From: Thermoplasmata archaeon | Lineage (GTDB): Archaea; Thermoplasmatota; Thermoplasmata; Lutacidiplasmatales; UBA184 | Assembly (NCBI GenBank): GCA_021819135.1 | Contig: JAKASE010000001.1 | Coordinates: forward strand, 75,375 to 139,374 | Direction: 5' to 3' | Length of the DNA stretch: 64,000 nt | Part shown: positions 35,383-63,036 of the stretch, one piece after another | Position numbering within the stretch: the first letter of the stretch is position 1 | Layout: each line of letters starts with the position of its first letter | The notes under the pieces: model-generated | What the model was told of the DNA's origin: nothing | Databases searched by the model: none | What the model saw: only the letters and a program-made list of their open reading frames with translations | Position numbers and translations under genes: made by a program

Positions 35383-35455
35383 GCCACTGTAGCTCAGTCG
35401 GCAGAGCGGCTGATTCGTAATCAGCAGGTCGGGGGTTCAAGTCCCTCCAGTGGCT
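35383..35455 (+). tRNA. tRNA-Thr (CGU)
   Basis: 73-nt cloverleaf: acceptor GCCACTG/CAGTGGC, D-arm GCTCAGTCGGCAGAGC, anticodon loop TTCGTAA, T-arm GGGGGTTCAAGTCCCTC; TATA-like CTTATGA ~30 nt upstream. Confidence 0.85.
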
Positions 35456-35499: not shown

Positions 35500-36742
35500 A
35501 TGGGTCAATCCCCGGTCGAACCGGCCGCCGACAATCGCCGGTTCGACATCCACGACACGCACGCCCAGATCGCCCACGCGGAGGCCCGACTGCGCTCAGG
35601 GGACTCGGGGGTCCCACCCGAGACCGCTCAGGCGATCCTCGAGTTCGTTGAGGCTCGTAGAGAAGCCGTCTCCGCGCAGAGGACGGTGACCTACCTTCGC
35701 GAATCTCCAGGCGGCCTCGAAGAGACTCGGCCGGGACCTTCTGGAACCGAACCGGGAGACGCCCGCGAAGTTCCTGCGGGCCTACCGCGAGAAGGAGGTC
35801 TGGACCAAGCTCACTGTGCGCTCCGTCCTCTACTCATTCTGGAAGTGGCGGTTCAATCGTGATGGGAAGGACTTCCCCCGCTGGCTCAAGATACCGCTCT
35901 CTGCGCGAGGGGCGAGCCGGAAAGACCACAACGATGTGTTGACCCCGGAGGAGGTCGCACGCATCGCCGATCACACAGTCAACCTCCGCGACAAGGCTCT
36001 GATCTGGGTCCTCTACGAGAGCGGAGGACGGATCGGCGAGGTGCTGACCCTGCGAATCGGCGACGTGGAGAGAACCGAATACGGGGCGGTCCGCCTCTAC
36101 TTTCCGACGGGAAAGACCGGTCGACGAACTGTCCCCCTCTTTGAAGCCGCGGTGCCGAACCTTCTCCTCTGGCTCAAGAACCATCCCCGAGCCAGCGACA
36201 GGGACGCTCCCCTCTGGGTCCAGATCGAGCAGGCGAACCCGAGCGGAAGTGGAATCGGCTACCGCTACGTCGTCAAGTTGCTCGAGCGAGCGGCGGCCCG
36301 CGCCGGCGTGGCGAAGCCGGTGAATCCGCACAGCTTCCGGCATTCCCGAGCCACGGCTGTGGCACAGAATCCCCAAGTCTCGACCTCGGTGCTCGAGAAG
36401 TTCTTCGGTTGGCAGCCGGGTTCGTCGATGGCGAAGACGTACGTTCACCTGTCGGGCAAGGAAGTCGAGGACGCCCTTGCCCGAGCCCACGGGATCGACC
36501 TCGGCAGATCGGAAACTCCGATGTCGAAGCTCCCGCGTGTGTGCGCCCGCTGCTCTACCTCAAACGACCCTGACGGGAAGTTCTGCGTCCAGTGCGGTGG
36601 TCCGCTCAGTCTTGAAGGCGTGGAGGAGCGGGCGAAGTGGAAGGCCGAGGAAGATGCGCTTGCCAACCTTCTTGACGACCCGAAGGTCCGCTCATTCATC
36701 GCGCGCCGGCTGAGGGTACATCTCGGCCGTGCAGAGGCGTAA
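35500..36742 (+). CDS. tyrosine recombinase/integrase, apparent +1 frameshift near 35690-35700 (N-terminal domain in frame of 35500, catalytic domain in frame of 35816)
   Basis: Catalytic boxes GGRIGEV (Arg), HSFRHSRAT (His-x-x-Arg), KTYVHL (Tyr); C-terminal zinc ribbon CARC...CVQCG; frame-2 reading open from 35690 encodes genuine-looking FLRAYREKEVWTKL segment lacking any start codon. Confidence 0.75.
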
Positions 36743-40440: not shown

Positions 40441-40865
40441 CAGGCTCGGACTCGTTACGAGAGTCCACGGCGGGATTCTATGGACGCGTTGGGAGCGAAG
40501 TCCCCCTATCGGAAGCGTCGCGTGACCGCCGTCTTCAACCCTGGAGTCGTGAACGAAAGGCTGAGACCCGGCTCGGCATGAATCCGAAGCTCCGGCTCGC
40601 TTCTGGCGATTTCTGGTTCTCCGCAGCTAAGTTTAAGATGCACCCGTTGACTGCGCGTTTGGATGACAGGGTCGCGTCGATTTCTCGCCATCGAGCGCGC
40701 GTTCCTGTCGTGTGTGACCGATTGGGCGACCCCGGGTTCGCCATCGGCCGCGGTCCACCGGAGCAGGCATGGACCCAAACGAGAACCCGGAGCCTTCGGA
40801 CAGCCGAGGTAGCGACCGTCCACGTGTGTGCTTCCGCCCACCGGGCGGCCCCGTGGGTAGATTGA
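40437..40865 (+). CDS. hypothetical protein (island cargo)
   Basis: ATGA overlap with upstream ORF; 142 aa. Confidence 0.25.
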   Translation: MTGSDSLRESTAGFYGRVGSEVPLSEASRDRRLQPWSRERKAETRLGMNPKLRLASGDFWFSAAKFKMHPLTARLDDRVASISRHRARVPVVCDRLGDPGFAIGRGPPEQAWTQTRTRSLRTAEVATVHVCASAHRAAPWVD

Positions 40866-41005: not shown

Positions 41006-41251
41006 ATGCGGTGGTTTACGGTTTCGGTGTCCGTAGTTGCCGTTCTCATCCTCCTATCCTCATCGATCGGATTGATTCGCGCCGCTGGGAGCGGGGGCGC
41101 CTTCCCCGCCGGGATCGTGGGTTCCGCCACTCCGTACTATCCGTTGCTGGTCCCTCCGTCGATGTGGCCGTCACCGGACACTGCCGTGCCGTCCACGTCC
41201 GGGGTCAACCTGTCACTTCCGCAACTAGTGGGCGTTTCCAGAAGTTCCTAG
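41006..41251 (+). CDS. possible small secreted/membrane peptide (81 aa)
   Basis: MRWFTVSVSVVAVLILLSSSIGLIRA signal-like N-terminus. Confidence 0.25.
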   Translation: MRWFTVSVSVVAVLILLSSSIGLIRAAGSGGAFPAGIVGSATPYYPLLVPPSMWPSPDTAVPSTSGVNLSLPQLVGVSRSS

Positions 41252-41268
41252 CCTAGCACGCGGGCCTG

Positions 41269-42032
41269 CTACCACCCGTCTACTTCGGGATCGTAGTCAT
41301 CGAGGCGCTCGAACCCTTTCACTCCGAGGATCGACAGCGCCGAGGGGGAGTCGAGGACCATTTGCCGTATGGTTCCGAGCAGATCCTTCTTCTCCCGTTT
41401 CTCGAGATCCTTCAGCACCTTGTCCAGATCCACGAACGACCGTGGCTTACGCTTGTACGTCTCGAGGAGCGCCGCCACATGCTTGCAGGGGTAGTATTCG
41501 GACGGACACGTGCACTGGGCCTCCTTCTTCCGTCCGGCCGAGGCTTGGGTCCGGTACACGCCGGAGTTCCCTTGGATTCGGCAGACCAAGGTCGACCCGA
41601 CCTTCATCCGTTCCCGCATCCGTGGGGAGTCCACATACTCGTCCACCCGGTCCTCCCACGAACGCCCCATTGCCGGGCTCACTGGAGGTAGGCGAGGCCC
41701 GCGCAATCGAAGCACTCCTCCGGAGTGCCTCCCATCGACCCGCTCGGAAGATACGAGCGCTCGTAGCGCTCCGTGCTGTACTTGTAGAACGCGAAACCCC
41801 ACACGTCCGGCCGCCCGGCATACTCGAGCCGACAGAGGTGGGTCGGAACACTCTCCACCTTCCCCGGCGAATCCTCGTCATAGCAGTAGGCATCCACCTG
41901 GGCGTACCGCCCTCGGAAGCGAACCTCCACCCGAGCGCATCGCTCCCTCCATCGCTGCTGGGCGCGAGCCCGAAGCCGCCCGGTCAACTCCCGCCGCAGC
42001 TTCGGAGGGATTCCCTCCGTCGACCTCTTCAT
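41269..42032 (-). pseudogene. SWIM zinc-finger protein, apparently frameshifted (frames 42032->41679 and 41802->41269)
   Basis: CTCPSEYYPCKHVAALL SWIM signature (CxCx(n)CxH) in downstream frame; upstream frame starts ATG 42032 overlapping IS630 transposase stop (ATGA). Confidence 0.5.
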
Positions 42033-43171
42033 CCCTTCTCCTCGCGATGCAGGGGTTCCGGGTTCTTGGACTCTTCCTCGGACCATCGCTTCAGGTCCGC
42101 TCGAAGGTCCTCCCGCGTGTACGTCCATCGGAAGGGCCGTGGATGTCGATTCCATCGAGCGAGGAACCCACGGATCCTCGCCTCCGCTTCCTCCCGATTC
42201 CGGAAATCTCTCGGTGTCAGTGCCTTCTTCGTCAGGATCGCCAAGAACAGCTCCTCCTGGTCGACCCAGCTCGCGTGCACCGGGGTGTGCACGGCCTGCG
42301 CTTGGGGGAACGCCCCTTTCAGCCATGGCCCGAAGCTCTTCGGATGATGGGCGCTCCCGTTGTCGATCACCCAGAACACCCGAGAGGCCGTGGCGTAGGG
42401 TTCCTTCTCCATCACCTCAGTGACGAAGGCACGAAACGACTCCGCGGTGTTTCGAGGGGGGAGCCCCCCGAACACATCCCCGTGTCGAACGTCGAGCGCT
42501 CCCTGGAAGCAGAGGGTTCCCTTGCGCGTGTATTCGAACTCCACCTTGCCGCGTTCCTTCGGCCGAGGGGCGCGGGTGGCCACCTTCCGCTGAAGGATCT
42601 GGACCCCGGTCTTCTCATCGGCACAGATCACTTGGTCCTGGGGCCCCAACGGCCGACCGTTCCACTGGCCTTCGTAGAGATCGAGGATCGGACCGGCTCT
42701 TTCGAGGAAGTCCGGAGCCCTCTTGTGGATCCACGTGCGATAGAACCACGGTCGAATCCCATCCTGGTGAAGGACCCGCCACAGGGTGGTCCGGCTGGGA
42801 AGCGGCCGGAGCCGTTCCTTCCGAAGGACGGAATGGATCTCGGAGAGGGAGAAGCGGCTGAGCGGTAGGCCCCGCTCGGCGGGCAACTCGCAGGCGATCG
42901 CCTTGAGGGTCGCCAAGGTGCGGGCCGGGAACTGACGAGGTCGGCCGGAGCGAGGTCGGTCCGCCAAGGCCGCCAGTCGGTCACGGACGAAGCGCTTCCG
43001 CCAAGTCTTGACGGTCTGGAGAGCGCAGCCCAGAGTTCGGGCGATCTCGTGGTTCGAAGTGCCCTCCGCGGCCAGAAGGGCGATCCGCGCACGCAAGACC
43101 TCGCGAAACGGAGCAGAGGTCCGACGAAGGCTGGCCTCGAGCCTTGAGCGCTCGCTTTCCGAGAGCACCAC
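42029..43171 (-). CDS. IS630 family (Tc1/mariner-like) DDE transposase
   Basis: 380 aa; N-terminal HTH, DDE region (ICADEKTG..., VIDNGSAHH...) typical of IS630; GTG start. Confidence 0.85.
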   Translation of the reverse strand: MVLSESERSRLEASLRRTSAPFREVLRARIALLAAEGTSNHEIARTLGCALQTVKTWRKRFVRDRLAALADRPRSGRPRQFPARTLATLKAIACELPAERGLPLSRFSLSEIHSVLRKERLRPLPSRTTLWRVLHQDGIRPWFYRTWIHKRAPDFLERAGPILDLYEGQWNGRPLGPQDQVICADEKTGVQILQRKVATRAPRPKERGKVEFEYTRKGTLCFQGALDVRHGDVFGGLPPRNTAESFRAFVTEVMEKEPYATASRVFWVIDNGSAHHPKSFGPWLKGAFPQAQAVHTPVHASWVDQEELFLAILTKKALTPRDFRNREEAEARIRGFLARWNRHPRPFRWTYTREDLRADLKRWSEEESKNPEPLHREEKG

Positions 43172-43440
43172 GGCGTAGCTGGGTGCGAGCAGTAGCCCAC
43201 CTCGATAGAGGTAGGCAACACTAGGCTAAGGACTTATGGAATGTTCCACTAGCGGCGACCGGGATCGGAACCGATCCGACCTTCTTCCTCGTCTACGCGG
43301 CGACCTACCTCGTCCAGGGGTCGAACGGCACCCGGTCGCTCCAGACGGACTTTGACATCCGGGTCGGGGTCTACGCGTCTTGGCTGGCCACCGACATTGC
43401 CACCAATACGACCTCGCGGACACTGCCGCTCAATTGGTCC

Positions 43441-45171
43441 GTGGCTCATACCATCTACACGGCATCCGGGAACTGTTCTTCGACGGCCATCGCCGCCGCT
43501 CCGGACGGTTCGTCGGTTGTGGCCGGGATCACGTGCGGCTCCACGTCCCGGGTGTTTCGTTCCACCCCGACGAATGCACTGACGTCATGGACTGCCCTTG
43601 GGACCCTTTCAGGAACCGGGCTCGAGCTCACCATCGACCCGGCGGGTTACGCTGCGGCCACGACGATCTCGGGTGGAGACGCCGTGCAGAGCGTGTTGCC
43701 GTTCCCGACCGGGCCCGTGACGTCGACCACCCTGGGACCGGCGAGCGCGGCCCGCCCGGTGATCCTTCGTACCGCCGAAGGAGCGGTTCAGGGAGCGGTC
43801 ACCGTTGACCCCGGAAGCTGGACCACGTTCTGGGCCACAACGGAGACCGGGCTCTCACCTATCGCCTACGGGATCTTCCGATTGCCTCAGAGCAACGCGT
43901 CCCCGGTGTTCAACGCGATCGGGTCGACCCAGCTCAGTGAACCCGGGGGGTATGCCAACCAGCTGTCGGTGGCGGTCGTGGGCGACACTCTCGTCGTCCT
44001 GACCACGGTCCAGGAGAACGGGACCATGGAAGCCGCGATCTCGGCCTCGGGAACCCAGGGGGAGACGTGGAACAGCCCGATCATCCTCCCGCTGACGATG
44101 GGCTCGATCATCGACCCCGAGATCTACGGCGGTCAAGATGGGAACATCTATGCCACCTGGTTGGCGAGCGACGGCGGCAATCTCTCCGCGATCGAGCAAG
44201 CCGTCCTCGCGCCGGACGGTCGGCTGCTCTCCGACCCGACCGTCATCCCCGGAGGGATTGGCCCGTGGCCGGTGAGTAACGTCGAAGTTGTGGGTTCAGC
44301 CCTCGATTCGTTCGAGCGTCCCCTGCTGGTGTGGGCAACGCCGGTCGGATCGAACGGGAACGCCCTGATCGAGACGGGCGCGTTCCCGTCTCCATCGAAC
44401 ATCGTCGGTCTCGAGCGAGACGCCCTGTGGAATCTCACCAGCGCGGACCTCGTCGGCTCGGGGAACGTGGCGACCTATGTGAGCGGCATGTCCGGGATCC
44501 TCACGAGCATCGCGAGCGATGCCGGGCGAGCAGGTTCGGGAGGATACTTCAACCTGGCCCGGAATCTCACCGCAGACCTATACCAGAACGACAGTCTCTC
44601 TTCCCTGGGCTACTTCGGCGAGCAGTCCTCGGGCAGCGGGAGTGGCAAGAAGTACACTCTCGCCGGAGGGGCGGACCTGACTCCCGCGGTAGAGACGGGT
44701 CCGGGATACTCCCCACCCGAGACGTATGGTGCCCTCGTTCCTTCGGTCGGCTTCGGTTCCGCCGCCACGTACTTGAGTGTCGAGACGGATTGGTTGCTGG
44801 CCTCCGAAGGTGTGGTCCCGGTGGCGGCTTCGAATCCGCTGAACAACGTCAGTCTGCCCCAAAGCCTGTCTTCATTGCCCGGATACGGGACGCCCGCCTA
44901 TCCGCACAACACGGTGGATGGGAAGCTCAGCTCCGCCACGGTCACCCCGAGTGTCATCAATCCGACCACGGCCGAGCTCGGGATCACCGGGTCCTTCCCC
45001 ACCTATCAGTACCAAACGACCACCGGCACGACGACCTGCGGGAGCACCCACTACCCCCTCCGAACCGATTCCTACACCGACACGCCATCGACCTTCTCGG
45101 ACACGGCCTTCGTCAACAACATGGTCACCGCGCTGGGAACCATTAGCAACCTGAACGGCGCAGCCTCATAG
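43441..45171 (+). CDS. Ser/Thr/Gly-rich sequon-dense surface protein (576 aa) with Asp-box-like motif, no signal peptide in-frame
   Basis: SGTQGETWNS Asp-box-like; many N-x-S/T; GTG start right after IS630; upstream in-frame sequence contains hydrophobic FFLVYAATYLV but no start codon. Confidence 0.5.
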   Translation: MAHTIYTASGNCSSTAIAAAPDGSSVVAGITCGSTSRVFRSTPTNALTSWTALGTLSGTGLELTIDPAGYAAATTISGGDAVQSVLPFPTGPVTSTTLGPASAARPVILRTAEGAVQGAVTVDPGSWTTFWATTETGLSPIAYGIFRLPQSNASPVFNAIGSTQLSEPGGYANQLSVAVVGDTLVVLTTVQENGTMEAAISASGTQGETWNSPIILPLTMGSIIDPEIYGGQDGNIYATWLASDGGNLSAIEQAVLAPDGRLLSDPTVIPGGIGPWPVSNVEVVGSALDSFERPLLVWATPVGSNGNALIETGAFPSPSNIVGLERDALWNLTSADLVGSGNVATYVSGMSGILTSIASDAGRAGSGGYFNLARNLTADLYQNDSLSSLGYFGEQSSGSGSGKKYTLAGGADLTPAVETGPGYSPPETYGALVPSVGFGSAATYLSVETDWLLASEGVVPVAASNPLNNVSLPQSLSSLPGYGTPAYPHNTVDGKLSSATVTPSVINPTTAELGITGSFPTYQYQTTTGTTTCGSTHYPLRTDSYTDTPSTFSDTAFVNNMVTALGTISNLNGAAS

Positions 45172-45174
45172 TAC

Positions 45175-46997
45175 CTACATCTGGCTGACCGCCGCCTTGC
45201 TCGCGCTCTCCAACCGGCTTACCGGCGAGGGAAACCTCGCCGGTAGCCTCCCCTGGACCGATCCGGCTAAATAGGTGTGGGTCTTACGTATGACCCACAT
45301 GGCGGTCAAGCACAACCGCGGCTCGGGCCGCTGTTACCTCTCCCAGTGGCGCACCTACCGCCGAGACGGCAAAGTCGTCAGCGAGTACGTCCGCTACCTC
45401 GGCCTCTGCCCCGAGCACAATGCCGGTCCCTCCACCTCCGTCCTCGACCGCACGGTCCACGGCTCTTCCTATCGGGCGGGAGCGGTCCGACTGCTCTGGA
45501 GCCTCGCCGACGATTTGCAGTTCCGGGCCTCCATCGACCGGATCTGCGGCCGAGATTCCGACCCTTCCGAGCCCTCTCCGGGCCAAACCCTGACGGCCTG
45601 GGCCATCAACCGGGTCCTCGATCCCGCCAGCGCCACCCGCCTCGAACTGTGGACGCCCACCACCGACCTACCTCTCCTCGCTGGGGTCTCGGCGGACGCC
45701 TGGGCGAAGGACACCTTCTTGCGCGCCCTCGACCGGATCTGCTACGACGACCCGGCGCTCGCCCAGGTGGTCGACCACACCGCCGAACTCGAGGAGACGC
45801 TGAGCGCCGGGTGGCGGGAGCGCCACCCGCTCCTGAAGGGGACGAAGGAGGTGATGGCCTACGACCTGACGAACGTGCTGTTCTTCGGCGTCACCTGCCC
45901 GATCGCCACTCCGGGTAGGAACCCCGATCACCAGAATCGGCTCCAAGTGAACGTCGGCGCCGTGGTGAGCCGTCACGACCGGATGCTCTGGCGGCACTTC
46001 GTCTACCGGGGGAACCGGCACGGCGTGGGAACGATGCGGAACCTCTTGGTGGAGCTCCAGCGGGCCCAAGTGGCCCCCGGATTGCTCATCGTGGACCGAG
46101 GCCTCGTGGGCCGGGAGATCGTCGAGGAGGTTCGGGCGGTCGGCTGGCAGCTGCTTGGGGGGCTCTCGCGGAGTTCGAAGGAGGTTCGGGAGATCCTCGA
46201 CACGGCGAAGCTGCGAGAGAACCCCTCGACGTTCGTTCAGAAGACCCGAACGGGGGCGATCTACGCCGCGAAGGTCCGGGCGAGGCTCTGGAAGTCGGAG
46301 CAGGAGGTGGTGCTCTACACGAACGCGGAGCACGCGATGGACGATCGGGTGGAACGGGACCGTGCGCTCTCGATGATCGGGAAGGTGCTCGACACGCTCT
46401 CGGAGAAGGGGAAGGACTGGTCGGAAGGGAAGCTCCACGAGGCGATCGAGGGCGTGCTCGGGGAATCGGCGGAGTTCGTGAACGTCCGGGTGCGTCGGGG
46501 CGGGGCCACGCCGAGAGTGGCGTGGTCCTTTCGGGATCGGGCGGTGAAGGCGGCGGCCCGGCGGGACGGGAAGTACGTGCTGCTCTGCACGGACCCGGGG
46601 CTGTCGGCGGCGGAGGTGGTGGAGCAGTATCTGGGGAAGGACTTCGTGGAGAAGGCGTTCCGGACGTTCAAGTCGGGGATCGAGGTGGAGCCGGTGCGGC
46701 ACCGTCGGGAGCGGCGGGTACGGGCCTACCTGTTCGTGTGTGGGCTCGCGTATCGACTGGAGATGGCGCTTCGGTGGAAGCTCCTGGAGGGCGGTGTGAA
46801 GCCGGAGGACGTAGCGGAGTACCAGGAGCGGCTGCTGGAGGAGCTCGGACGCGTGGAACGAACCGAGGTCCGGCTGGGAGCTCAGGCCCGAACGTGGTAT
46901 CTGAATGTCACGGACCGCGTCCGGGAGGGGTTGAGGCGCCTCAAGCAGACCGGGTTGCTCCAAGAAGGGCCCGTCGCGACCGCGGTACCGGCGTAGG
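45175..46997 (+). mobile_element. IS1634-family insertion sequence with 9-bp target-site duplication TCATAGTAC
   Basis: Direct repeats at 45166-45174 and 46998-47006 flank a 1.8-kb segment carrying a single transposase gene. Confidence 0.65.
45290..46996 (+). CDS. IS1634 family (IS4 superfamily) DDE transposase
   Basis: MAVKHNRGSGRCYLSQWRTYRRDGKVVSEYVRYLG N-terminus and C-terminal YLGKDFVEKAFRTFKSGIEV (Y-x2-R-x3-E-x6-K) signature. Confidence 0.85.
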   Translation: MTHMAVKHNRGSGRCYLSQWRTYRRDGKVVSEYVRYLGLCPEHNAGPSTSVLDRTVHGSSYRAGAVRLLWSLADDLQFRASIDRICGRDSDPSEPSPGQTLTAWAINRVLDPASATRLELWTPTTDLPLLAGVSADAWAKDTFLRALDRICYDDPALAQVVDHTAELEETLSAGWRERHPLLKGTKEVMAYDLTNVLFFGVTCPIATPGRNPDHQNRLQVNVGAVVSRHDRMLWRHFVYRGNRHGVGTMRNLLVELQRAQVAPGLLIVDRGLVGREIVEEVRAVGWQLLGGLSRSSKEVREILDTAKLRENPSTFVQKTRTGAIYAAKVRARLWKSEQEVVLYTNAEHAMDDRVERDRALSMIGKVLDTLSEKGKDWSEGKLHEAIEGVLGESAEFVNVRVRRGGATPRVAWSFRDRAVKAAARRDGKYVLLCTDPGLSAAEVVEQYLGKDFVEKAFRTFKSGIEVEPVRHRRERRVRAYLFVCGLAYRLEMALRWKLLEGGVKPEDVAEYQERLLEELGRVERTEVRLGAQARTWYLNVTDRVREGLRRLKQTGLLQEGPVATAVPA

Positions 46998-47008
46998 TCA
47001 TAGTACGA

Positions 47009-50000
47009 GTGCGCTGTTCAGGTAGCAAGTCGTCTTTCATTCCCAACCTCTATCTCCAGAACCTCTCCGCCGACCGGCTGTTCACCTGGTACGTTACCCT
47101 GAAGGCGACCTACGACGAGACCGATTACTGGATCATCCACAACGCGTGCACGACCCGGGAGGGTGTGACAAACCTGGGGAACAACGTCGTCCAGGGTCCC
47201 GCGTCGGTCTCGATGAGCGGGGGATCCGAGGACTCGACGACCTTGACCACTTCGGCCCAGGTGATCGAGAAGGGTACCAGCGATGTCGAGCTTCAGTGGA
47301 ATAACTCCATGATGGCGGATGGCCAAGGGGTCATCAGCCCGTCCATGGGCGGTAGTGGCCTCTCCGGGTTCGTCTACCAGGCGTCCTGGAACGACACTCA
47401 CACGTTCAGCAGTGGTGTGGCCTACGAAGCCGCCGTGAACACTTCGAGCTATCCGGGAGGTTGGAACAGCTCCTGGAAGCCGTCGATGTCCGCCGCCGAG
47501 CAGACCTCGTCACCGGTGCAGGCCACGAACTCCGTGTGTCAGTTCGTGTATCAGACCAACACGCTCAGCCTCCATGGACTCGTGGGGGTCGGAGGACCGA
47601 ACGACACCGCGACGGTGACTTGGTGGGCGAACGGCTTCGGGGTGGGCGTGCTCGAATACTCGGAGGTCGGCACGTCGTGGAGCCAGACCGTGACGTCGGT
47701 CGTAACGACCGATTCCAATGGGACTGACAAGTACACGGCGACCGTCCACGGCCTGCCCGGTACCGCGTTCTACTCCCTAACGGCCACGACGACGGTGGCC
47801 GCCGGGGGATGCCTCAGTCTCTCGAACGCGATCTCGTCCACGGCGTTCTTCGGACAAGGGTTCACGCTGACGCCGTTCGCGTACGCCTACGATTCGATCA
47901 CGCAGCAAGGTGGCGGTGAGGGGATCTACGCATACCTGTCGCCCCAGTTGTATACCCTCTACACGCAAAGCACGGTAAGTTCGACCGGAGGCTACCTGGA
48001 CTACGGACCGGCCAACGACGCGGGGCCGAACATCACCATCCCCATCTCGTCGCTATCTTCCATCACCTGTGGAGGGAACTGCTTCCTGGTGAACATCACG
48101 CCTACGAGTCCGAACCTGAACTATGTGGTCCAGGAGACGCTCAACTTCTCATGGGACGGCGGATCGTACTCCATGCACAGTGCTCCGACGACCTTCAACT
48201 ACCTCTGGGACACATCGGGGGATGGCCTGACGGATGCGGAGAAGGTCCGCGGCTGGAACGTGACCTACCAGGACCTTGCGGGCACCTACCACACCCGCCA
48301 CGTCACGGCCGAACCCAGCGCCTTTGCGACCAATGGACTCGTGGGAGACTACGTGGAGAAGGAGTTCGGGCTCGACCCGGGCACGGTCGACACGGCAGGC
48401 AGCCACATGCTCGATACATGGAACCTAACGTTCAATCTCCAGCCGGCAGGCGGGAGTCTACCTACCGGCTCGGACCTCCGAGTCTGGTACGAGAACTCGA
48501 CCTACGAGCCGTTCGCGGCAGGTCTTCAGTATTCCCACGGGCTCTATGAGACGGGCAATCCACCGGCCAGCGAGCGGAACGCGACCAACATCTCCGCCAC
48601 GGGAGGCGTCAACATCGGGGACGGGAGCCCATGGGCATCGACTGCGCTCTTCAGCTACCCCGCGCTCGAGACATTCGTCGGTCTGTCCGGTGTCCAGAAC
48701 GCGGGCTGGCTGCGGGCCGTCGAGGGGAGCTGGCAGGGGATCCCGACCCTCACGGTCGAAGGGAAGCTCTCTTGGGGGGCGGATCCCCTGGCCGCATCCA
48801 CCCCGAACGACGGGGTTTCGGACGGGGCGCGGGTCAACCCGCTCTACGATGTCGGTCTCGAGTTCCATTCCGTCTATGCGAACCTGACCGGGCTCGGGTC
48901 GGGCAACGATGGCAATGGCTACGCGGTCGAGATGGTCGAGGGCTACACCGATGATGGCGGGAACTGGCGATACATCAACAACTACTCCACGCCAGCGGTA
49001 TACGGCAACAGCAGCTCCCACCATGGAGACGTCACCGACTACACCACCACGTTGCCGGTGGGTCAAACCCAGCCGACCCAGACGATCTCGCTCGAGGTGG
49101 CGGAGAACATCACTCCGGGCCAGGGGCCCCAGCCGGCCTATATCAACGGGAGCGGTACCGGAATCTCCGAAACGTACGACCTCGTCCGAGGAGGCAATTT
49201 AGTCGTGAATGTCGTCGGCTGGTCCGGGCACGGCGGCTACTCCACGCTCTACGGGGTGTTCACGGAGGTGCCGATGGGAACCAAGGCGCCGACGTGGCTC
49301 TGGGTCCCCACGGACAACTCGACCGTCAACGGTCTCCCGATCGGCCTCCAGCGATACACCGGCGAGCAGTCGTTCGACCTCGTGGTCGTGAACGTCTCCT
49401 CCTCGGCCCTCTCCTCCGACCCGATCCCGCTCCCGTGGGGCGGGACGACACCGACCGGGATCCCGCTCTCGGCCGGCCTGAACGACTTCCTGGTCCCGCG
49501 GGAGCAGTTCCTCTACTCTCCCTTCGGCCAGGCGATCTTCCTCGGGAAGAGCACGAGCTTCAATGCCTCCCAAGCCCTGCCGTTCAACGGCTCGATCGAG
49601 TGGGGCGACATATCGGGGTTCGGCAGTCCGAACCCGATGGTCGACCTCGGCGCCTACTGGCAGAACCGGGCCATCGCCTCCGGACCGGGGAACATCACCG
49701 GGTATAACGAGACCGGTACCGCCGCGGGCACCACGGATGCCATCTCGGTGATGGTCGGTCCGTCCGCCACCACTGCCAACACCGGCGGCCTCCCCTCGAA
49801 CCCGAGCCTCTACTCGACCGTCGGCGATCCCTCGGCCCTGCAGTCCATCGTCACCCTCAACATCACCAGCCCGGACACGCTGGACCTCCTCCTCGCCGCC
49901 CTGCTCGATAACACCACGGGCGGATCCAACGCGGTGAACGGTACCCTCGAGTCCGTCACCTACCAGATCGGGTTCCTCGGACTGAACCCGACCGTACTCA

Positions 50001-51064
50001 ACGCGATCCCGAACGGGACAGAGCCGAACGACGGGCTCTACGGACAACCGAGCAGCACCTGGCCGCCGAACCCGCCGAGCAGCCTCTGGGGCTCCTTCTG
50101 GAACGCGGTCACGAGCTTTGTGGTCAACCCGCTCGGCACGGTCCTGTCGCTCGTCAACACCGTGTGGGACGCCGCTACGGCCGCGTTCACGTACCTGAAC
50201 CACCTCGCGCACGAAGCGGTCGCGATCGGGGCGGAGGTCGTGGCGCGGACCGCAGCCGCGATCGTGCAGGCGGGGAGGGAGATCGCGAACGCGTTCGAGG
50301 TGTTCTTGAACTGGCTCTACACGCTCGTCAAGGACGCACTTGCGGTGGTTATCGACCCGATACTTAACGCGGCCCAGAGTTTCGACAGCACTCTAGCGAC
50401 TCGGGCCAACGTGACTGTGAGCGACCAAGGCTCACTCGGTTACGTGACCCCCGCTGATGGGCTAACTTGGGCACGGGCATTCGACCCAGTAGCCTACCTT
50501 GGGTTTGCATTCGCAGTCGGTATCACCATCGTAATCGGGATTGTTACAGCCGTCACTCTAGGAGCAGGGTTCGTTGTCGGGGTGATCTTGTCCCTCATTC
50601 CCACGCTCGCGCAAGAGCTAATCCATGGACTGGCGACAGTGACGTCACTCACTTCGAGCGCGGTGACAACTCTCGAAGATAGCTTCTCCAACTCGGTCTC
50701 GCAGACTGACTGGGAAGCTTTGGCAGGTGCCGTATCGATCGGGGCGTCGAGCTTCGACTTCTTCTTTGCGTTGGCGACAGCGGCGATGAAGGGACTCACC
50801 AACACCATCGCAGGTACCCTCGCCCTCTCCATCATCGTTGACCTCGTCGTCTTTGTGGTGAGCATCGTGAACTGGGCGAGTCATCTCGCAGACATCGCCA
50901 TCGCCGCCCTCTTGCTGGCGGGCGCCGGAACGTATGTCGCGTTCAGAGCACTGGGTGCGAGCGCGAGCATTCCGGAATTGAAGACTTACGCCACCGTCTC
51001 CGTCATCTTGGCTGGAGTGGGACTTGCTGCTGCCGGGGCCGATGTCCATCTGGCGGAGTCGTGA
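47009..51064 (+). CDS. giant (1351 aa) N-glycosylation-sequon-rich surface protein with C-terminal multi-TM domain; no recognisable signal peptide
   Basis: >70 N-x-S/T sequons, S/T/G-rich beta-like sequence, 6-8 hydrophobic helices in last 300 aa; GTG start 12 nt after IS1634 end. Confidence 0.6.
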   Translation: MRCSGSKSSFIPNLYLQNLSADRLFTWYVTLKATYDETDYWIIHNACTTREGVTNLGNNVVQGPASVSMSGGSEDSTTLTTSAQVIEKGTSDVELQWNNSMMADGQGVISPSMGGSGLSGFVYQASWNDTHTFSSGVAYEAAVNTSSYPGGWNSSWKPSMSAAEQTSSPVQATNSVCQFVYQTNTLSLHGLVGVGGPNDTATVTWWANGFGVGVLEYSEVGTSWSQTVTSVVTTDSNGTDKYTATVHGLPGTAFYSLTATTTVAAGGCLSLSNAISSTAFFGQGFTLTPFAYAYDSITQQGGGEGIYAYLSPQLYTLYTQSTVSSTGGYLDYGPANDAGPNITIPISSLSSITCGGNCFLVNITPTSPNLNYVVQETLNFSWDGGSYSMHSAPTTFNYLWDTSGDGLTDAEKVRGWNVTYQDLAGTYHTRHVTAEPSAFATNGLVGDYVEKEFGLDPGTVDTAGSHMLDTWNLTFNLQPAGGSLPTGSDLRVWYENSTYEPFAAGLQYSHGLYETGNPPASERNATNISATGGVNIGDGSPWASTALFSYPALETFVGLSGVQNAGWLRAVEGSWQGIPTLTVEGKLSWGADPLAASTPNDGVSDGARVNPLYDVGLEFHSVYANLTGLGSGNDGNGYAVEMVEGYTDDGGNWRYINNYSTPAVYGNSSSHHGDVTDYTTTLPVGQTQPTQTISLEVAENITPGQGPQPAYINGSGTGISETYDLVRGGNLVVNVVGWSGHGGYSTLYGVFTEVPMGTKAPTWLWVPTDNSTVNGLPIGLQRYTGEQSFDLVVVNVSSSALSSDPIPLPWGGTTPTGIPLSAGLNDFLVPREQFLYSPFGQAIFLGKSTSFNASQALPFNGSIEWGDISGFGSPNPMVDLGAYWQNRAIASGPGNITGYNETGTAAGTTDAISVMVGPSATTANTGGLPSNPSLYSTVGDPSALQSIVTLNITSPDTLDLLLAALLDNTTGGSNAVNGTLESVTYQIGFLGLNPTVLNAIPNGTEPNDGLYGQPSSTWPPNPPSSLWGSFWNAVTSFVVNPLGTVLSLVNTVWDAATAAFTYLNHLAHEAVAIGAEVVARTAAAIVQAGREIANAFEVFLNWLYTLVKDALAVVIDPILNAAQSFDSTLATRANVTVSDQGSLGYVTPADGLTWARAFDPVAYLGFAFAVGITIVIGIVTAVTLGAGFVVGVILSLIPTLAQELIHGLATVTSLTSSAVTTLEDSFSNSVSQTDWEALAGAVSIGASSFDFFFALATAAMKGLTNTIAGTLALSIIVDLVVFVVSIVNWASHLADIAIAALLLAGAGTYVAFRALGASASIPELKTYATVSVILAGVGLAAAGADVHLAES

Positions 51065-51067
51065 CAG

Positions 51068-51697
51068 ATGGGGCCGACGGAGGATTCGGATGCTCGGGAG
51101 TTTGATGTCGGCACTTTGAATGAGCAATCAAACAGGGCAAAGAAGGCCAAGCTCAAGGTGCTCGTGGGAGGAGCGGTGTTCATTGTCGCGTTCGGGCTAT
51201 TCTTCCTAGCAACTGATTGGACTTCTGCGATTGGTGGTACTCTTTCAACCGTGAGGCTCGCCACGCTTCTCATAGTCTTCATAATCGTTGGATTAGTCCT
51301 TTCGGCGATCATCCCGGGGATCGCGTTGACCCGGGGTGGTGCAAACCATGTTCGGATCGACGATGCCGGGGTGGAGTTCAACACCCTTTCTGGTAGAGAC
51401 ATGCAGATTACTTGGTCCGACCCGCGCTTATCAATGAAACTACTCGACTTCAGCCAAATTCCCCATAGGAGTGAGCTGACCGGCATTCGGCATGTGATTC
51501 GTATCGGCCGAGTCGAGACTCCTCTTTCGCCCGAGGCTTTCGACGAATTGCTTAAGCGCGCAAAACGCCACGGACTCGCGATAAGGAGTTCTCGTGCGAG
51601 CCGCTGGATATACCCTTCGGCGGTTGCCCCCATCGTGTACCGAGTGAGCGGCCGCTCAGGCTTTACCGTCCATTGGCACCAAGGAGGTGGGACCTGA
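51068..51697 (+). CDS. hypothetical membrane protein (lower-GC cargo)
   Basis: ATG 4 nt after giant ORF stop; two TM helices; GC ~52%. Confidence 0.4.
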   Translation: MGPTEDSDAREFDVGTLNEQSNRAKKAKLKVLVGGAVFIVAFGLFFLATDWTSAIGGTLSTVRLATLLIVFIIVGLVLSAIIPGIALTRGGANHVRIDDAGVEFNTLSGRDMQITWSDPRLSMKLLDFSQIPHRSELTGIRHVIRIGRVETPLSPEAFDELLKRAKRHGLAIRSSRASRWIYPSAVAPIVYRVSGRSGFTVHWHQGGGT

Positions 51698-51807: not shown

Positions 51808-52802
51808 CTATGGAAGACTATCGAGCGTTGTACCGATAAGTCTGAGTCCTGCCTCTCCCTCGAAATCCCGAAACTTGGGTCGCGGCCGTATTCCGGTCGT
51901 CGAGGGGTTGGCCAGTCGAATCGATCGCTTCCCGACGTTTTTTCCCGACTTGTTTCGATGCGCCCACTCGTCGAGCTTGAGTGAGGGGAGCGCCCACCAG
52001 GTTCCCGCGGCTTCCGAGTAGAACATGAAGAGGTAGTTGGGACGAGGATTGCGCAACTCGAAAGCACTGAAGAAGGCTGCATCGCGCGGGGCCACGTCCT
52101 TTGAGCGCGCCTTGACCTGCACGTCCAGATACTTTGGGTGACCGCTGGGGTCCTCCCGTCTTATCACGCAATCAATCCCCTGGTCGTCCACCAATGTCAG
52201 ATAGACGTCGAAGCCGCGCCTTAGAAGCTCGGAAATCGCGACGAACTCCTGGCGCTTGCCGAACGAACCGGAACTTCGGAAAGTCCCTCTCACTTTCGAG
52301 CTATCGTCACGGTCGTCATAAGGAGCCCTCTGGCAACACCCCACATACCACCGAATCGCTGCGTCTGGGACTGGTGCGGCGGCCCTGGAGCACGCATCGC
52401 GAAACGGGTTCGCATGGGAATGTGAGCTCTCCCTTAGCCCGTCGTCTTCTTGGTGGGGTTCCCGAGTATGTTCAACATGTAGAGCCACCACTCCGATTGT
52501 GTGTTCTCCTCGAGTCGCTTGGCGGCCCAGACTGTATCGGTCGAGTGAATCGAGTAGAAGATGTTGAATCCGTTGTCCCTCAGATTCTCGAGAGCTTTCC
52601 AGGTGTTCGCTTCCCCTCGTCCATGGGAGTAGAGCCGGTACCGCACGTCTCCGGTGTGACCCACGTAGAGGGTGTGTTTATCACCTCGTCCCCTCGAGGC
52701 CGCGATGACGTAAGCGGCGGGTCCCTCGAACGGAATCTGACTTGGCTTTAGAGGCGAGCCGTCCGAATTGTACAGGGGTGCCCAATCTGACCAACGCCCC
52801 AT
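51808..52802 (-). pseudogene. GIY-YIG nuclease domain (52802->52434) followed, with a frame change, by Hjc-like PD-(D/E)XK nuclease domain (52491->51808)
   Basis: GIY-YIG: AAYVIAA...LYVGHTGDVRYRLYSH; PD-(D/E)XK: GKRQEFVAISELLRRGFDV...DDQGIDCVIR...YLDVQVKA; 58-nt out-of-frame overlap. Confidence 0.5.
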
Positions 52803-52920
52803 GATGCCCGGGACTGCCCCTCAGTATGAAAGTCTGACTCGGACCCAAGTTCGACAAGGGTACGCGCGCCGCCACCGCCGACCGGTCGGGGTGAGGGCAC
52901 CCCCTGATTGTTATCCTATA

Positions 52921-54654
52921 CTCCGTCAGTCCAGCCCTCGAGGACCCGCGTCGAACAGTAACCCCGCCACGCCGATGGCTCCGAGGAGGGACCGCTGTTC
53001 CTTCGTCATCTCCGTCACGAGCCGGCGACGCCAGCCCGTCTTGGCGAGCTCGACCTCGTTCAGCATGATGGTGCGGAACTGGTCCAGGGCCTTCGCTCCC
53101 GTGAGCTCGTAATCGCGCATTCGGACGTGCAGTTCGACCACCCGCTCGAGGAGATAGGCGAGCACGCAGAGGAAGAGGTGGGCTTCGATCCGTCGCTCGA
53201 GGCGGTGGCGGATTGGGCGGACCTCCAGTCCGCTCTTCAGCTCCCGCCATCCCTGTTCGATGATCGAGAGCCCCATGTAGAGACGGGCGACCTCCTCGGG
53301 GGGAAGATCGGTGTCGGTGGTCAGTACCCACCAACCGGCCAGCCTCCGATCGCGTCGACGGCCTTCCTTGAGCTTCGCCGTCAATCCACGGACCGTCGCC
53401 TCGTCCCACTCGATCTCGAACAGGTCGGAGAGACCCTTTGCCGCCAGAGCGGCGTGGGCCTGTCGAAGGATCGTGTGATGGTGCCGAGGCCGCTTCGCCC
53501 AGGCACGGCGAAGCTGGTAGAGGATCGCCTCGCCCTGGGCGATCCTACGCCCGAGGTTCTCGAGCTCGGTCTTCCGTCGCTCCTCGTTCAAGAGGACGAT
53601 GAACCGTCGTCCCTCTCGGTCGATGACCTCACGGACCTGGTTCTGCTCGCTGACGGCCACTGGCGGGAGTTTCTGGGCCTGGAGGATGATCTCCTCCACG
53701 TTCCGATTGACCTCGGCGAGCACGTAGTGGAATCCGTGGGCGTGGAGGTCCGCGAGGACCTCCTCGCTCTTCATTCCCCGGTCGCCGACATAGGTCCCTT
53801 CCTTCAGTCCGAAGAGCCGGGTCAACCGGTCGACCATCCCGATGACCGTCGTGTTGTCGGTGGTGTTACCCGGATAGACCTGGAGGGTGATGGGGAGGCC
53901 CTCGGGCGTGACGACCATGCCCCAGCTGACCTGAGGCCGATCCGCTCGACGGTCTCTCGAGTAGCCGAACTGGGCGAGGGGACCTCCCTCGCCCTCGAAG
54001 TAGCTGGACGTGAGGTCGTGATAGAGCACTCCCGAGGATTGGCTCATTGGGCGCACGACCCGTTCGAACAGCTTCGGTTCGAACCGGTCCTTCGCTCGCC
54101 AGAAGGCATCCATCGCTCGGTAGAACAGGTTGTCGTGCAACCGCTCGGGGTCGAGGTGGAGGAAGAATGGAACGGCGGTGGTGGGCAACCACTCGAGGAG
54201 ACCATACTTCGAGGTCGGATCGTCGAGGCGGTTCAGCACGATCGCCTCGAGGAGCGCCGCGACCCGTCCCTTGTGCGGCACTCCATTAAGCGTTTCGAGG
54301 GCGAGTTGGTGGAGTCCAAGCTTCCGCCAGAGGAAGTGACCGATGGCCACTTTGCCGTAGCTCCACGACTGACGGACACTGAGCTCCGAGAGATCGGCGA
54401 TGTCCCGCGGTCGAGGAGCCAGGGGGAACCGCGGGTCGGTGGCCAGCCATCGACGGAGGTTCTCGATCTGCTCTGGAGTAACCCGACCGAAGTTGACCAG
54501 GACCTCGGTCCGGACCTTGGTTCCTTCCCGGATCCCTCGGGCCAACTGAGCGTAGGTCTGCCCCCGAGGACGAACGACCTTGATGTAGAGGCCTCGGGGC
54601 ACGCAGGGTAGAGAACTGACGAATAGATAGAAGTATCCAACGTATTCGATATGC
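52921..54654 (-). mobile_element. second IS1634-family element (different from the first); possible 11-bp imperfect direct repeat GTTATCCTA(T/C)A
   Basis: Repeat copies at 52910-52920 and 54655-54665; AT-rich 54620-54680 terminus; no clear terminal IRs found. Confidence 0.4.
52926..54602 (-). CDS. IS1634 family DDE transposase (558 aa)
   Basis: C-terminal LYMGLSIIEQGWRELKSGLEVRPIRH signature; family-typical length; GTG start. Confidence 0.85.
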   Translation of the reverse strand: MPRGLYIKVVRPRGQTYAQLARGIREGTKVRTEVLVNFGRVTPEQIENLRRWLATDPRFPLAPRPRDIADLSELSVRQSWSYGKVAIGHFLWRKLGLHQLALETLNGVPHKGRVAALLEAIVLNRLDDPTSKYGLLEWLPTTAVPFFLHLDPERLHDNLFYRAMDAFWRAKDRFEPKLFERVVRPMSQSSGVLYHDLTSSYFEGEGGPLAQFGYSRDRRADRPQVSWGMVVTPEGLPITLQVYPGNTTDNTTVIGMVDRLTRLFGLKEGTYVGDRGMKSEEVLADLHAHGFHYVLAEVNRNVEEIILQAQKLPPVAVSEQNQVREVIDREGRRFIVLLNEERRKTELENLGRRIAQGEAILYQLRRAWAKRPRHHHTILRQAHAALAAKGLSDLFEIEWDEATVRGLTAKLKEGRRRDRRLAGWWVLTTDTDLPPEEVARLYMGLSIIEQGWRELKSGLEVRPIRHRLERRIEAHLFLCVLAYLLERVVELHVRMRDYELTGAKALDQFRTIMLNEVELAKTGWRRRLVTEMTKEQRSLLGAIGVAGLLFDAGPRGLD

Positions 54655-54768
54655 GTTATCCTACAAAATCCAAGTCCTCAGTCGAGAACCCGATCAGTTT
54701 GTCGAAGGTGGGCTCGGAGCGATCGCCCTCGACTTGACCCTGCCTTTCGCGGATACTGTGGGTTGCTC

Positions 54769-61171: not shown

Positions 61172-63036
61172 GTGCGCCGAGCAACCATGGAGACCAGCAA
61201 CGACCCAAGCTACACGGTAAGTCGTAGCGGAAGGCAGGGTGTCGGGGGAAACCCCGAATCTGAAGGGCCTGACCCGCAAGCTCGTGGGCCGAAGGAAGAC
61301 GAACCGACAACCAGCCTCCTCGCGGAAGGACGACCCTGTTCTGACGGGGGGAAGTCGTGTGTGGCGTACGGCGAGGAGGTGTGTGAGGTCGGCACGCGGG
61401 TATCGGGCCTCCATGGTGACCTCGGGATGCCCTCGGTCCTCCCGGCCGTGGCAAGGAAGGAAGCCTCGGGGTTGGGACCCCGATGGCGAATGGCCCGAGC
61501 TACGGGAAGGGTAGACCTCGTGGCAACACGAGGACGAAGGGACCAGGGTGGCAGAGGGAGCCGTAGTAGTCGTGACGGCCGGGGAAACCCGGAACGAGCG
61601 AAGGGCTCCCGGTCGGCCAAGGGTGGCGCGGAAAAGACCGGCGGAGTGACTTCCCGAGGGCGGGCACGGAATGGTGGGACGACCCATCCCATCCTCTACG
61701 GAGAGCCGCCAAGGGAGGGGAAGGGCGCGGAGCGCCCTCCGAGTCGGTCGAGTGCCATCGGGGAGAACCACCCATGAAGCCGCTTCCGAAGTGGACGGGG
61801 CAGAAGCATTCCTCGCTGATGCCCCTGCTGTTTCGGAAGAAGACCCTCCAGGCGGCATGGGAGCAGGTGAGGAGGAATGGAGGAGCCCCGGGGATAGACG
61901 GCGAGACGGTGGAGGAGTTCGGAGAACATGCGAAGGAACGGCTGTGGGAACTGTCGGAGGAACTCCGACTGCACACGTGGCAGCCGAAGCCGTTGCGTCG
62001 AGTCTGGATACCGAAGCCGGACGGCCGGAAGCGAGGACTGGCCATCCCGAGCGTGGAGGACCGGGTGGTGCACGCCGCCATCGCCATCGTGCTCTATCCG
62101 ATGTTCGAGGACGTGTTCGGGGAGGCGTGCTTCGCGTATGTCCCGGGGAAGAACGCCCAGCAAGCAGTAGCGCGAGTAGCGGAGAAGGGACGAGCGGGGA
62201 AGGAATGGGTCGTGGAGACCGATGTGGCCTCGTTCTTCGACACGGTGGATCGGCGGCGACTGGTGGGGAAGCTCGCGGCGAGGATCGCGGACGGGAGCTT
62301 CCTTCGACTGGTGGGCCAAGTCGTTCGGTCCGGCGTGCTGGGAGAGCGGACCACAGAGGAGAGTGCCGAGGGAATCCCGCAAGGGAGTCCCCTGTCGCCC
62401 CTCCTGGCGAACATCTATCTCGCGGAGTTTGACCGAGAGGTAGGGAAGCGCTGGGAGTTGACGCGGTATGCCGACGACCTCGTGGTGCAGTGCGCCACGA
62501 GGGAGGAAGCGGAAGCGGCCCAGGAGGAGGTGGAGTCCGCCCTCGGGAACGAAGGGCTGACCATGAAGCCGGAAAAGACGCGTGTGGTGTCGTTGCGAGA
62601 GGGGGTGGACTTTCTGGGGTATCGCATCACCCTCGGGGGCGTCTGGCCCTCGGAGAAGTCGGTGAAGCGGCTTCAGGAGAAGGTACGCTCCCTGACGCTG
62701 CGGCACGAGACGCGTCCGCTGAAGGAAGTGGTGCAACGGGTGATGCCCGTGATTCGCGGGTGGACGAACTACTTCTCGATGACCGAGCCATCTCGGCTCT
62801 GGAACCTGGGGATGTGGATTCTGGACCGAATTCGCCTGTGCGCCGTGAAGCACTGGTGGCGAGTGAAGTGGCAGAAAGAAGCGTCCTCCGCACGGCTGTA
62901 CGGGCTGGGATTGAGGCTACCGTATGTCCTCCTCAAGTGGGGCGCCCGATGAGGCCGAGAAAGCCGTGTGCGCTAAACGCGCCCGCACGGTTTGGGGTGG
63001 CGGACGGCGGGGAGTAACCTCCGCCTCCGACCCTAT
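61172..63036 (+). mobile_element. group II intron (~1.86 kb): 5' GUGCG, domain I-IV with IEP ORF, domain V (62961-62993), domain VI with bulged A, 3' end ~63036
   Basis: GTGCG at 61172-61176; RT/maturase ORF in domain IV; DV AAGCCGUGUGCGC-UAAA-CGCGCCCGCACGGUUU with AGC triad and 2-nt bulge; DVI GGCGGGGAG-UA-A-CCUCCGCC. Confidence 0.75.
61774..62952 (+). CDS. group II intron-encoded reverse transcriptase/maturase (RT + X domains, no endonuclease domain)
   Basis: RT blocks: RVWIPKPDGRKRGLAIP (RT1-2), FAYVPGKNAQQAV, SFFDTVDRRRL, IPQGSPLSPLLANIYL (RT5), YADDLVVQC (RT5 YADD); maturase X tail. Confidence 0.9.
   Translation: MKPLPKWTGQKHSSLMPLLFRKKTLQAAWEQVRRNGGAPGIDGETVEEFGEHAKERLWELSEELRLHTWQPKPLRRVWIPKPDGRKRGLAIPSVEDRVVHAAIAIVLYPMFEDVFGEACFAYVPGKNAQQAVARVAEKGRAGKEWVVETDVASFFDTVDRRRLVGKLAARIADGSFLRLVGQVVRSGVLGERTTEESAEGIPQGSPLSPLLANIYLAEFDREVGKRWELTRYADDLVVQCATREEAEAAQEEVESALGNEGLTMKPEKTRVVSLREGVDFLGYRITLGGVWPSEKSVKRLQEKVRSLTLRHETRPLKEVVQRVMPVIRGWTNYFSMTEPSRLWNLGMWILDRIRLCAVKHWWRVKWQKEASSARLYGLGLRLPYVLLKWGAR

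Follow-up and report, generated by a model that had tools for sequence, protein, structure and literature searches.

Why should an archaeon encode giant surface proteins, dense in N-glycosylation sequons, that carry no signal for leaving the cell? The question is raised by two long open reading frames (ORFs) of 576 and 1351 amino acids (aa) in a 64,000-nucleotide (nt) stretch, here called the window, of the metagenome-assembled genome (MAG) of a Thermoplasmata archaeon of the UBA184 lineage (assembly GCA_021819135.1, contig JAKASE010000001.1, positions 75,375–139,374). An earlier note, made from the DNA letters alone, had described the two ORFs as a pair of giant proteins rich in serine, threonine, glycine and asparagine, lying next to mobile elements and lacking signal peptides. 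We find that the region is, very probably, one ancestral gene of cell-surface glycoprotein type that has been cut in three by two transposon insertions, and that its start and signal lie on the far side of the first of them.

As first read, the window presents a 576-aa ORF at 43441–45171, in a frame open from 43225, and a 1351-aa ORF at 47009–51064, both beginning with GTG, neither with a signal sequence, and both listed as separate genes by the gene callers of NCBI, ENA and Logan. The GTG ‘starts’ of both lie inside the terminal repeats of insertion sequences (ISs) or 3–6 codons away from them, and the 573-aa ORF that separates the two (45275–46996) encodes an IS1634-family transposase. With the 1351-aa ORF as query we found 140 relatives, with no Pfam domains beyond an occasional TIG, PKD or fn3; the full-length ones are nearly all 1,900–2,350 aa long, a length that suggested that both ORFs are pieces of a single gene.

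Scripted removal of two segments, 41228–43251 and 45149–47027, yields one ORF of 6,156 nt (2,051 aa) that is composed of 41006–41227, 43252–45148 and 47028–51064 and has no frameshift and no stop but the terminal one. Fragment 1 (41006–41227, + strand) supplies codons 1–74 (MRWFTVSVSVVAVLILLSSSIGLIRAAG...) with the putative signal/anchor helix (hydropathy peak 2.48 at aa 6–24), aligns with the N-termini of the homologues P0005, P0009 and P0002, and in the present DNA stops eight codons into the first inserted element. Its frame is open from an ATG at 40769, from which the product would be about 2,130 aa long, possibly with an added 79-aa basic cytoplasmic tail such as several homologues have. 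Fragment 2 (43252–45148, +) carries codons 75–706 and the first base of codon 707, and the 576-aa ORF is its GTG-delimited part plus eight codons read into the second element. Fragment 3 (47028–51064, +) runs from the remainder of codon 707 to codon 2051 and the stop, and the 1351-aa ORF is fragment 3 plus six codons read out of the second element from the GTG at 47009. Because fragments 2 and 3 have neither start nor signal, an ORF scan shows them as giant ORFs without signal peptides.

The first inserted element, IS-A (41228–43249, −; 2,022 base pairs (bp)), belongs to the IS630 family and is bounded by imperfect terminal inverted repeats of about 29 bp: 41228–41256 reads GTGGGCGTTTCCAGAAGTTCCTAGCCTAG and the reverse complement of 43221–43249 reads GTGGAACATTCCATAAGTCCTTAGCCTAG, matching at 22 of 29 positions. 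A TA target-site duplication flanks it (41226–41227 on the left, 43250–43251 on the right) within CTAG tetranucleotides at 41225–41228 and 43249–43252, and deleting the element with one TA restores the frame. Its 380-aa transposase (42029–43171, −; Pfam DDE_3, 2.4e-12, and HTH_32, 9.7e-15) matches the NCBIfam model transpos_IS630 at 170.4 bits against a cut-off of 100. Related copies elsewhere bear out this terminus: one 83% identical (L052, 260–1749) and one 71% identical (L053, 2922–4405), each in a different genomic context, end at the same ...CCCAC as IS-A. The earlier note had rightly seen an IS630 end adjoining the 576-aa frame, and the transposase gene does lie immediately upstream; that end lies at 43249 and not at 43225, and 43225–43249 is the element’s terminal repeat read in frame. 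A different junction, at TAGCCTAG/CTAGGCTA (41249 and 43222), was tried and rejected: an in-frame TAG would remain, and the two sequences are themselves part of the inverted repeats; read-through or pyrrolysine at that TAG was dropped given the approximately 29-bp repeats and the CTAG target.

The second element, IS-B (45149–47023, +; 1,875 bp), is of the IS1634 family, with imperfect terminal inverted repeats (ACCTGAACGGCGCA... on the left, ACCTGAACAGCGCA... as the reverse complement of the right end) in which 13 of the 14 outer bases match (ACCTGAAC[G/A]GCGCA). It is flanked by an AGCA target-site duplication (45145–45148 and 47024–47027), for which a 5-bp AGCAA is equally possible, and again the deletion of the element with one copy of AGCA restores the frame. 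The transposase (45290–46996, +; 568 aa from ATG, 573 aa from the GTG at 45275; Pfam DDE_Tnp_1) scores 192.9 bits with NCBIfam transpos_IS1634, whose cut-off is 100. In its IS1634-type DDE transposase, its length of about 1.9 kb, its inverted repeats and its short duplication, IS-B resembles the IS4-related IS1634 family; it differs in a duplication of 4 bp (or 5 bp), where 5–6 bp is typical, and in being found, by exact-protein look-up, as a single copy at this locus. A 9-bp TCATAGTAC repeat (45166–45174 and 46998–47006) was rejected as the IS-B duplication: it would leave an in-frame TAG with the 1351-aa ORF out of frame, and it falls within the inverted repeats, the true ends being 45149 and 47023.

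The best explanation is that an IS630-family element entered a CTAG site in codon 74/75, duplicating TA, and that an IS1634-family element entered codon 707, duplicating AGCA, in independent transpositions. Both insertions are probably recent: the 6,156 nt show no additional stop or frameshift, the two copies of each duplication are still identical and both transposase ORFs remain uninterrupted. The gene copy itself is presumably now non-functional, a pseudogene.

Intact relatives bear out the reconstruction. Searched exhaustively, 1.84 billion cluster representatives yielded 333 relatives, 206 of them at E ≤ 1e-30, and in every full-length protein (1,800–2,750 aa) among the best 150 of the 333 the region resembling the 1351-aa ORF is C-terminal. 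The restored protein aligns with intact relatives in single BLASTP high-scoring segment pairs, at 46% identity over aa 105–2048 with P0004, 42% over aa 3–2050 with P0002 and 39% over aa 6–2046 with P0003. In a multiple alignment the homologues run continuously, without a gap, across both junctions: at one, ...VTLPQLGATGTGSTPTYFLLY of P0005 matches ...LSLPQLAATGIGTDPTFFLVY of the restored protein, and at the other TIKSSSFIPALYLQNVSA of P0005 matches TISKSSFIPNLYLQNLSA. Most of the 38 genome loci searched with tblastn likewise encode one continuous frame of about 2,000 aa. By its sequence the interrupted gene is thus a pseudogene member of an unnamed family of giant Thermoplasmata membrane proteins, and the restored product has the features found across that family (P0002–P0120): an N-terminal helix, a propeller, a conserved DTSGDG/NGLVxDYVEKE core and a C-terminal helical bundle. 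It also keeps the columns that are invariant in the family alignments.

The homologues also account for the missing signal. Their N-terminal tail is basic and leads into a hydrophobic helix that aligns with the restored N-terminus MRWFTVSVSVVAVLILLSSSIGLI, itself a hydrophobic, putative signal/anchor helix resembling theirs. Rather than sharing the signal-less beginning of the 576-aa ORF, 78 of 116 full-length homologues have a strongly hydrophobic 17-mer within their first 136 aa (median start residue 47). The suspicion voiced in the earlier note that IS630 insertion had parted the 5′ end and signal from the rest is therefore borne out, the missing piece being the fragment across the element at 41006–41227 (possibly from 40769), which rejoins in frame. 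Its other proposal, a non-canonical start, is rejected. The hydrophobic stretch FFLVYAATYLV, which it had taken for part of a signal, corresponds to restored aa 83–94, a predicted propeller β-strand modelled with a block-mean predicted local distance difference test (pLDDT) score of 93–94.

Could the two ORFs instead be separate, functional surface proteins of 576 and 1351 aa, with a non-canonical start or export route? Both are long, open and GTG-started, and three sets of gene callers treat them as genes. Yet the pieces rejoin in frame once each IS is removed with one copy of its duplication, the homologues are single proteins of about 2,000 aa that cross both junctions, the GTG codons sit in or beside IS termini, and the intact homologues have N-terminal hydrophobic helices; we regard this explanation as exceedingly improbable. 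That repeated IS sequences were mis-threaded into an intact gene during assembly or binning is a concern natural to a MAG, and the Logan and ENA contigs do break inside the 576-aa ORF or the IS1634 transposase, as repeats often cause. Against such an artefact stand the signatures of transposition (inverted repeats, a TA duplication at CTAG that is typical of IS630, a short direct duplication for IS1634), the exact in-frame restoration and the fact that several assemblies from different pipelines have identical junctions: the same broken arrangement occurs in NCBI assembly GCA_027377435.1 (contig DAIFDS010000079.1), ENA ERZ27237336 and Logan SRR13205814/SRR13205817. An error of this kind strikes us as very unlikely. 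A third possibility is that the insertions belong to a functional on/off or variation system, working by IS insertion and excision or by switching between paralogues, for example under virus pressure, with fragment 3 possibly expressed from an IS-borne promoter. It would fit the presence of four family loci in one genome (MFD09222.bin.2.31), the IS1634-type transposase genes beside homologues in L013 and L033, the position of the locus in a lower-GC (guanine plus cytosine) stretch that starts at a tRNA-Thr gene and an integrase and holds three ISs, and the absence of further decay from the restored ORF. Precise excision is unsupported, a search of JGI metagenome contigs for the empty site having given 0 hits; the window holds no paralogue of the giant gene; and big non-essential genes are simply large targets for ISs. 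A switch of this sort therefore seems improbable to us.

Several points nevertheless weigh against a single gene broken by two insertions, or against what we make of its product. No empty-site allele of the present gene was found, both restored-junction patterns giving 0 hits in JGI metagenome contigs, and over the whole restored protein no full-length intact relative comes closer than about 42–46% identity. An exact-protein look-up of both transposases matched only this locus, so that mobility of the elements within the present genome is presumed, and the assemblies that share the arrangement may stem from the same or related samples. The structural model of the 1351-aa ORF is only moderately confident (pLDDT 68.7, predicted template-modelling score (pTM) 0.48), and the function has no sequence-family match to lean on, the fold matches being generic (FN3, C2, helical bundles).

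What kind of protein has been interrupted? The restored sequence is rich in glycine, threonine, serine and alanine and contains 43 sequons (N-x-S/T, x not P), compared with 22.3 ± 4.1 in 2,000 shuffled versions (maximum 36); about 8 fall in the 576-aa ORF and 31 in the 1351-aa ORF, and all 43 are confined to the part flanked by the N-terminal helix and the C-terminal hydrophobic domain. The enrichment is a property of the family, roughly 2.4-fold across 40 homologues (median 54.5 sequons observed versus 24.5 expected). At the other end of the protein, the C-terminal hydrophobic domain shows about five strong hydropathy segments at restored aa 1864–2048 and eight helices in the model. The earlier note’s description of sequon-dense ORFs without N-terminal signals, the larger ending in a membrane domain, thus holds for the pieces, which are fragments 2 and 3 of one gene split by the second IS and not two giant proteins.

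An AlphaFold2 model of fragment 2, built on a 48-sequence alignment, has a pLDDT of 80.3 and predicts a β-propeller of about 27 strands, helices and a β-sandwich. The predicted propeller spans approximately aa 75–455 and includes one Asp-box-like SxxxGxxW motif (S340, G344, W347) that is invariant in the family, so that the structural check proposed in the earlier note, for propeller or Asp-box repeats, returned a propeller with a single conserved motif. Its best matches in the PDB are PLL lectins, bacterial sialidases and kelch domains (Foldseek E ~1e-7, 11–13% identity), a generic signal as far as the modelled fold goes. The likeness to BNR/Asp-box propellers, sialidase-like or PLL-type lectins, consists in a predicted six- or seven-bladed propeller with one Asp-box-like motif; the giant protein differs from them in that only one motif is conserved, identity is 11–13% and Pfam finds no BNR or sialidase match, and it thus has neither the repeated Asp-boxes nor the model match of a sialidase/BNR member. 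For the last 1,200 residues (pLDDT 68.7, pTM 0.48), the model has tandem β-sandwiches, a conserved core of mixed α/β type, a long helix (about 90 residues) and, in the membrane region, eight helices; in fragment 3 the sandwiches are predicted to be FN3-like, and the core motifs are DTSGDGLTDxEK and DGxxDGxRVNPL.

The giant gene does not stand alone. Four nucleotides past its stop codon begins a conserved partner gene (51068–51697, +) for a 209-aa protein with two predicted transmembrane helices, 30–32% identical to its equivalents in L008 and L010. Searched with a hidden Markov model of the partner, at least 19 homologue loci show a copy immediately after the giant gene and on its strand, and L016 has three copies in tandem; among NCBIfam models the partner has only a weak, sub-threshold match to the ‘STM3941 family’.

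The giant protein family seems restricted to Thermoplasmata: nearly all genome matches are Thermoplasmata MAGs, UBA184 among them, with one labelled ‘bacterium’ and one ‘archaeon’. It has no matches in Pfam, NCBIfam or PDB sequences, and literature searches found no description of it. Some genomes hold several copies, up to the four loci of MFD09222.bin.2.31. Near giant-gene homologues in L013 (5014–6332) and L033 (2822–4481) lie IS1634-type transposase genes, degraded in L033. In the closest full-length homologue, P0004 (L010, 7900–7935), a 1-nt frameshift in a G5 run lies a few codons from the equivalent of the IS630 site, in DNA that is otherwise continuous; the called P0004 protein consequently lacks the signal-bearing first ~100 residues, and the frameshift is probably a long-read homopolymer error. 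In the long-read MAG loci L028, L014, L042, L043 and L047 the homologue is split over several frames, by sequencing errors or as further pseudogenes.

IS-A departs from its family in content. It shares with the IS630 family (Tc1/mariner-related DDE transposons) its transposase, its insertion at CTAG with TA duplication and its terminal inverted repeats. IS630-family elements are usually roughly 1.1–1.4 kb long and encode a transposase only. IS-A lacks that compact, transposase-only layout: within its 2,022 bp, inside the repeats and downstream of the transposase, lie two extra genes that recur with the transposase in other contigs. One, orf117 (41679–42032, −), has its ATG overlapping the transposase stop codon (ATGA); the other is a 133-aa SWIM zinc-finger ORF (41269–41670, −; SWIM 5.8e-09). 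The 29 homologues of orf117 are mostly on contigs of 1–4 kb. Of the two related copies in other contexts, L052 has all three genes in the IS-A order, with the common terminus, and L053 has the transposase and orf117 without SWIM, followed by the terminal repeat and TA. We would class IS-A as a variant that carries passenger or accessory genes, and IS630 elements in which orf117 is translationally coupled and SWIM optional may form an undescribed subgroup of the family.

The broken gene lies in a compositionally distinct part of the window, whose GC content is about 70%, falling to 58–65% between 36 and 56 kb. UBA184 is listed as the TMEG/Lutacidiplasmatales group's other released genome, and the order's GC content is given as about 69% (PMC9287336), in agreement with that of the present window. 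The drop begins at a tRNA-Thr gene (CGT; 35383–35455), which is followed by a tyrosine-recombinase gene (35816–36742, +; Pfam Phage_integrase, 1.1e-21); a tRNA gene and integrase at the start of the low-GC stretch suggest an integrated island that holds the broken gene and three ISs. No right border came to light, the 3′ half of the tRNA-Thr gene having no repeat of at least 12 nt elsewhere in the window. The third IS, again of the IS1634 family (~52844–54712, −; candidate inverted repeats 52844–52857 and 54699–54712), has a transposase gene at 52926–54602 (NCBIfam, 313 bits) whose product is 27% identical to that of IS-B. Between it and the giant gene sit two small ORFs, 51808–52293 (−), with a weak, sub-threshold Pfam match to DUF4365 (a PD-(D/E)XK-like nuclease domain), and 52434–52802 (−), with an equally sub-threshold, weak match to the GIY-YIG nuclease domain. 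Farther along, 62959–63036 (+) matches the Rfam group II catalytic intron domain at 41.4 bits against a gathering score of 40.

Read along its length, the intact protein would have a short N-terminus of basic character and a single signal/anchor helix, then a sequon-rich ectodomain of about 1,800 aa comprising the propeller with its Asp-box-like motif, a helical linker, FN3/C2-like sandwiches and acidic DxxGDG motifs, and finally a long helix and, at the C-terminus, a bundle of membrane helices. It would be exported by way of the N-terminal helix and held by the C-terminal bundle, possibly also by an uncleaved N-terminal anchor. On the strength of its sequence it was most likely an exported, N-glycosylated cell-envelope protein, and we infer that it works with the small membrane protein encoded downstream.

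Archaeal N-glycosylated envelope proteins, among them S-layer glycoproteins, the Thermoplasma membrane glycoprotein or glycocalyx and the exterior protein layer, offer the closest comparison: the giant protein resembles them in its predicted export signal, very large ectodomain, approximately twofold sequon content, Ig/FN3-like sandwiches, membrane anchor and Thermoplasmata host. It differs from characterized S-layer proteins in having no sequence match or specific fold match to them, and in its anchor, which is predicted to be a multi-helix C-terminal bundle, possibly together with the N-terminal helix, and not a single C-terminal helix or a lipid. The earlier note had called the ORFs typical of S-layer and glycocalyx proteins; a sequon-dense, membrane-anchored, surface-type Thermoplasmata protein is what emerges, and its membership in an S-layer or glycocalyx would be conjecture. 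According to the part of PMC12448462 on which we draw, cultured Thermoplasmatales have no S-layer, and a dense, non-crystalline exterior protein layer of about 20 nm is seen on Cuniculiplasma and Oxyplasma. By analogy, the giant family plausibly contributes to such a layer in related orders; the same part of that source does not name the layer’s components, so that the connection is one that we infer.

A bolder proposal, which we put forward as unlikely in its entirety, is that the giant family, of about 2,000–2,700 aa, together with its partner of about 200 aa chiefly makes up the non-crystalline exterior protein layer that stands in for an S-layer in Thermoplasmata, as a heavily N-glycosylated protein anchored in the membrane at both ends, with loci that vary under virus pressure, and that the IS630 variant constitutes a subgroup of its own. 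If this were true, the multi-copy, IS-prone and island-associated loci would reflect variation of the envelope under pressure from viruses.

For annotation, the consequence is that the entries for two ‘hypothetical proteins’ in a public MAG belong together, as a single pseudogene marked as disrupted by ISs, and once they are merged it is no longer puzzling that a giant surface protein should seem to lack a signal peptide. The IS630 variant, with two genes beyond its transposase, slightly widens the known diversity of ISs. The restored sequence defines an uncharacterized family of 333 cluster representatives, accompanied by a conserved partner gene and lacking a Pfam model; its members are reasonable candidates for envelope proteins in these uncultured, probably S-layer-less archaea.

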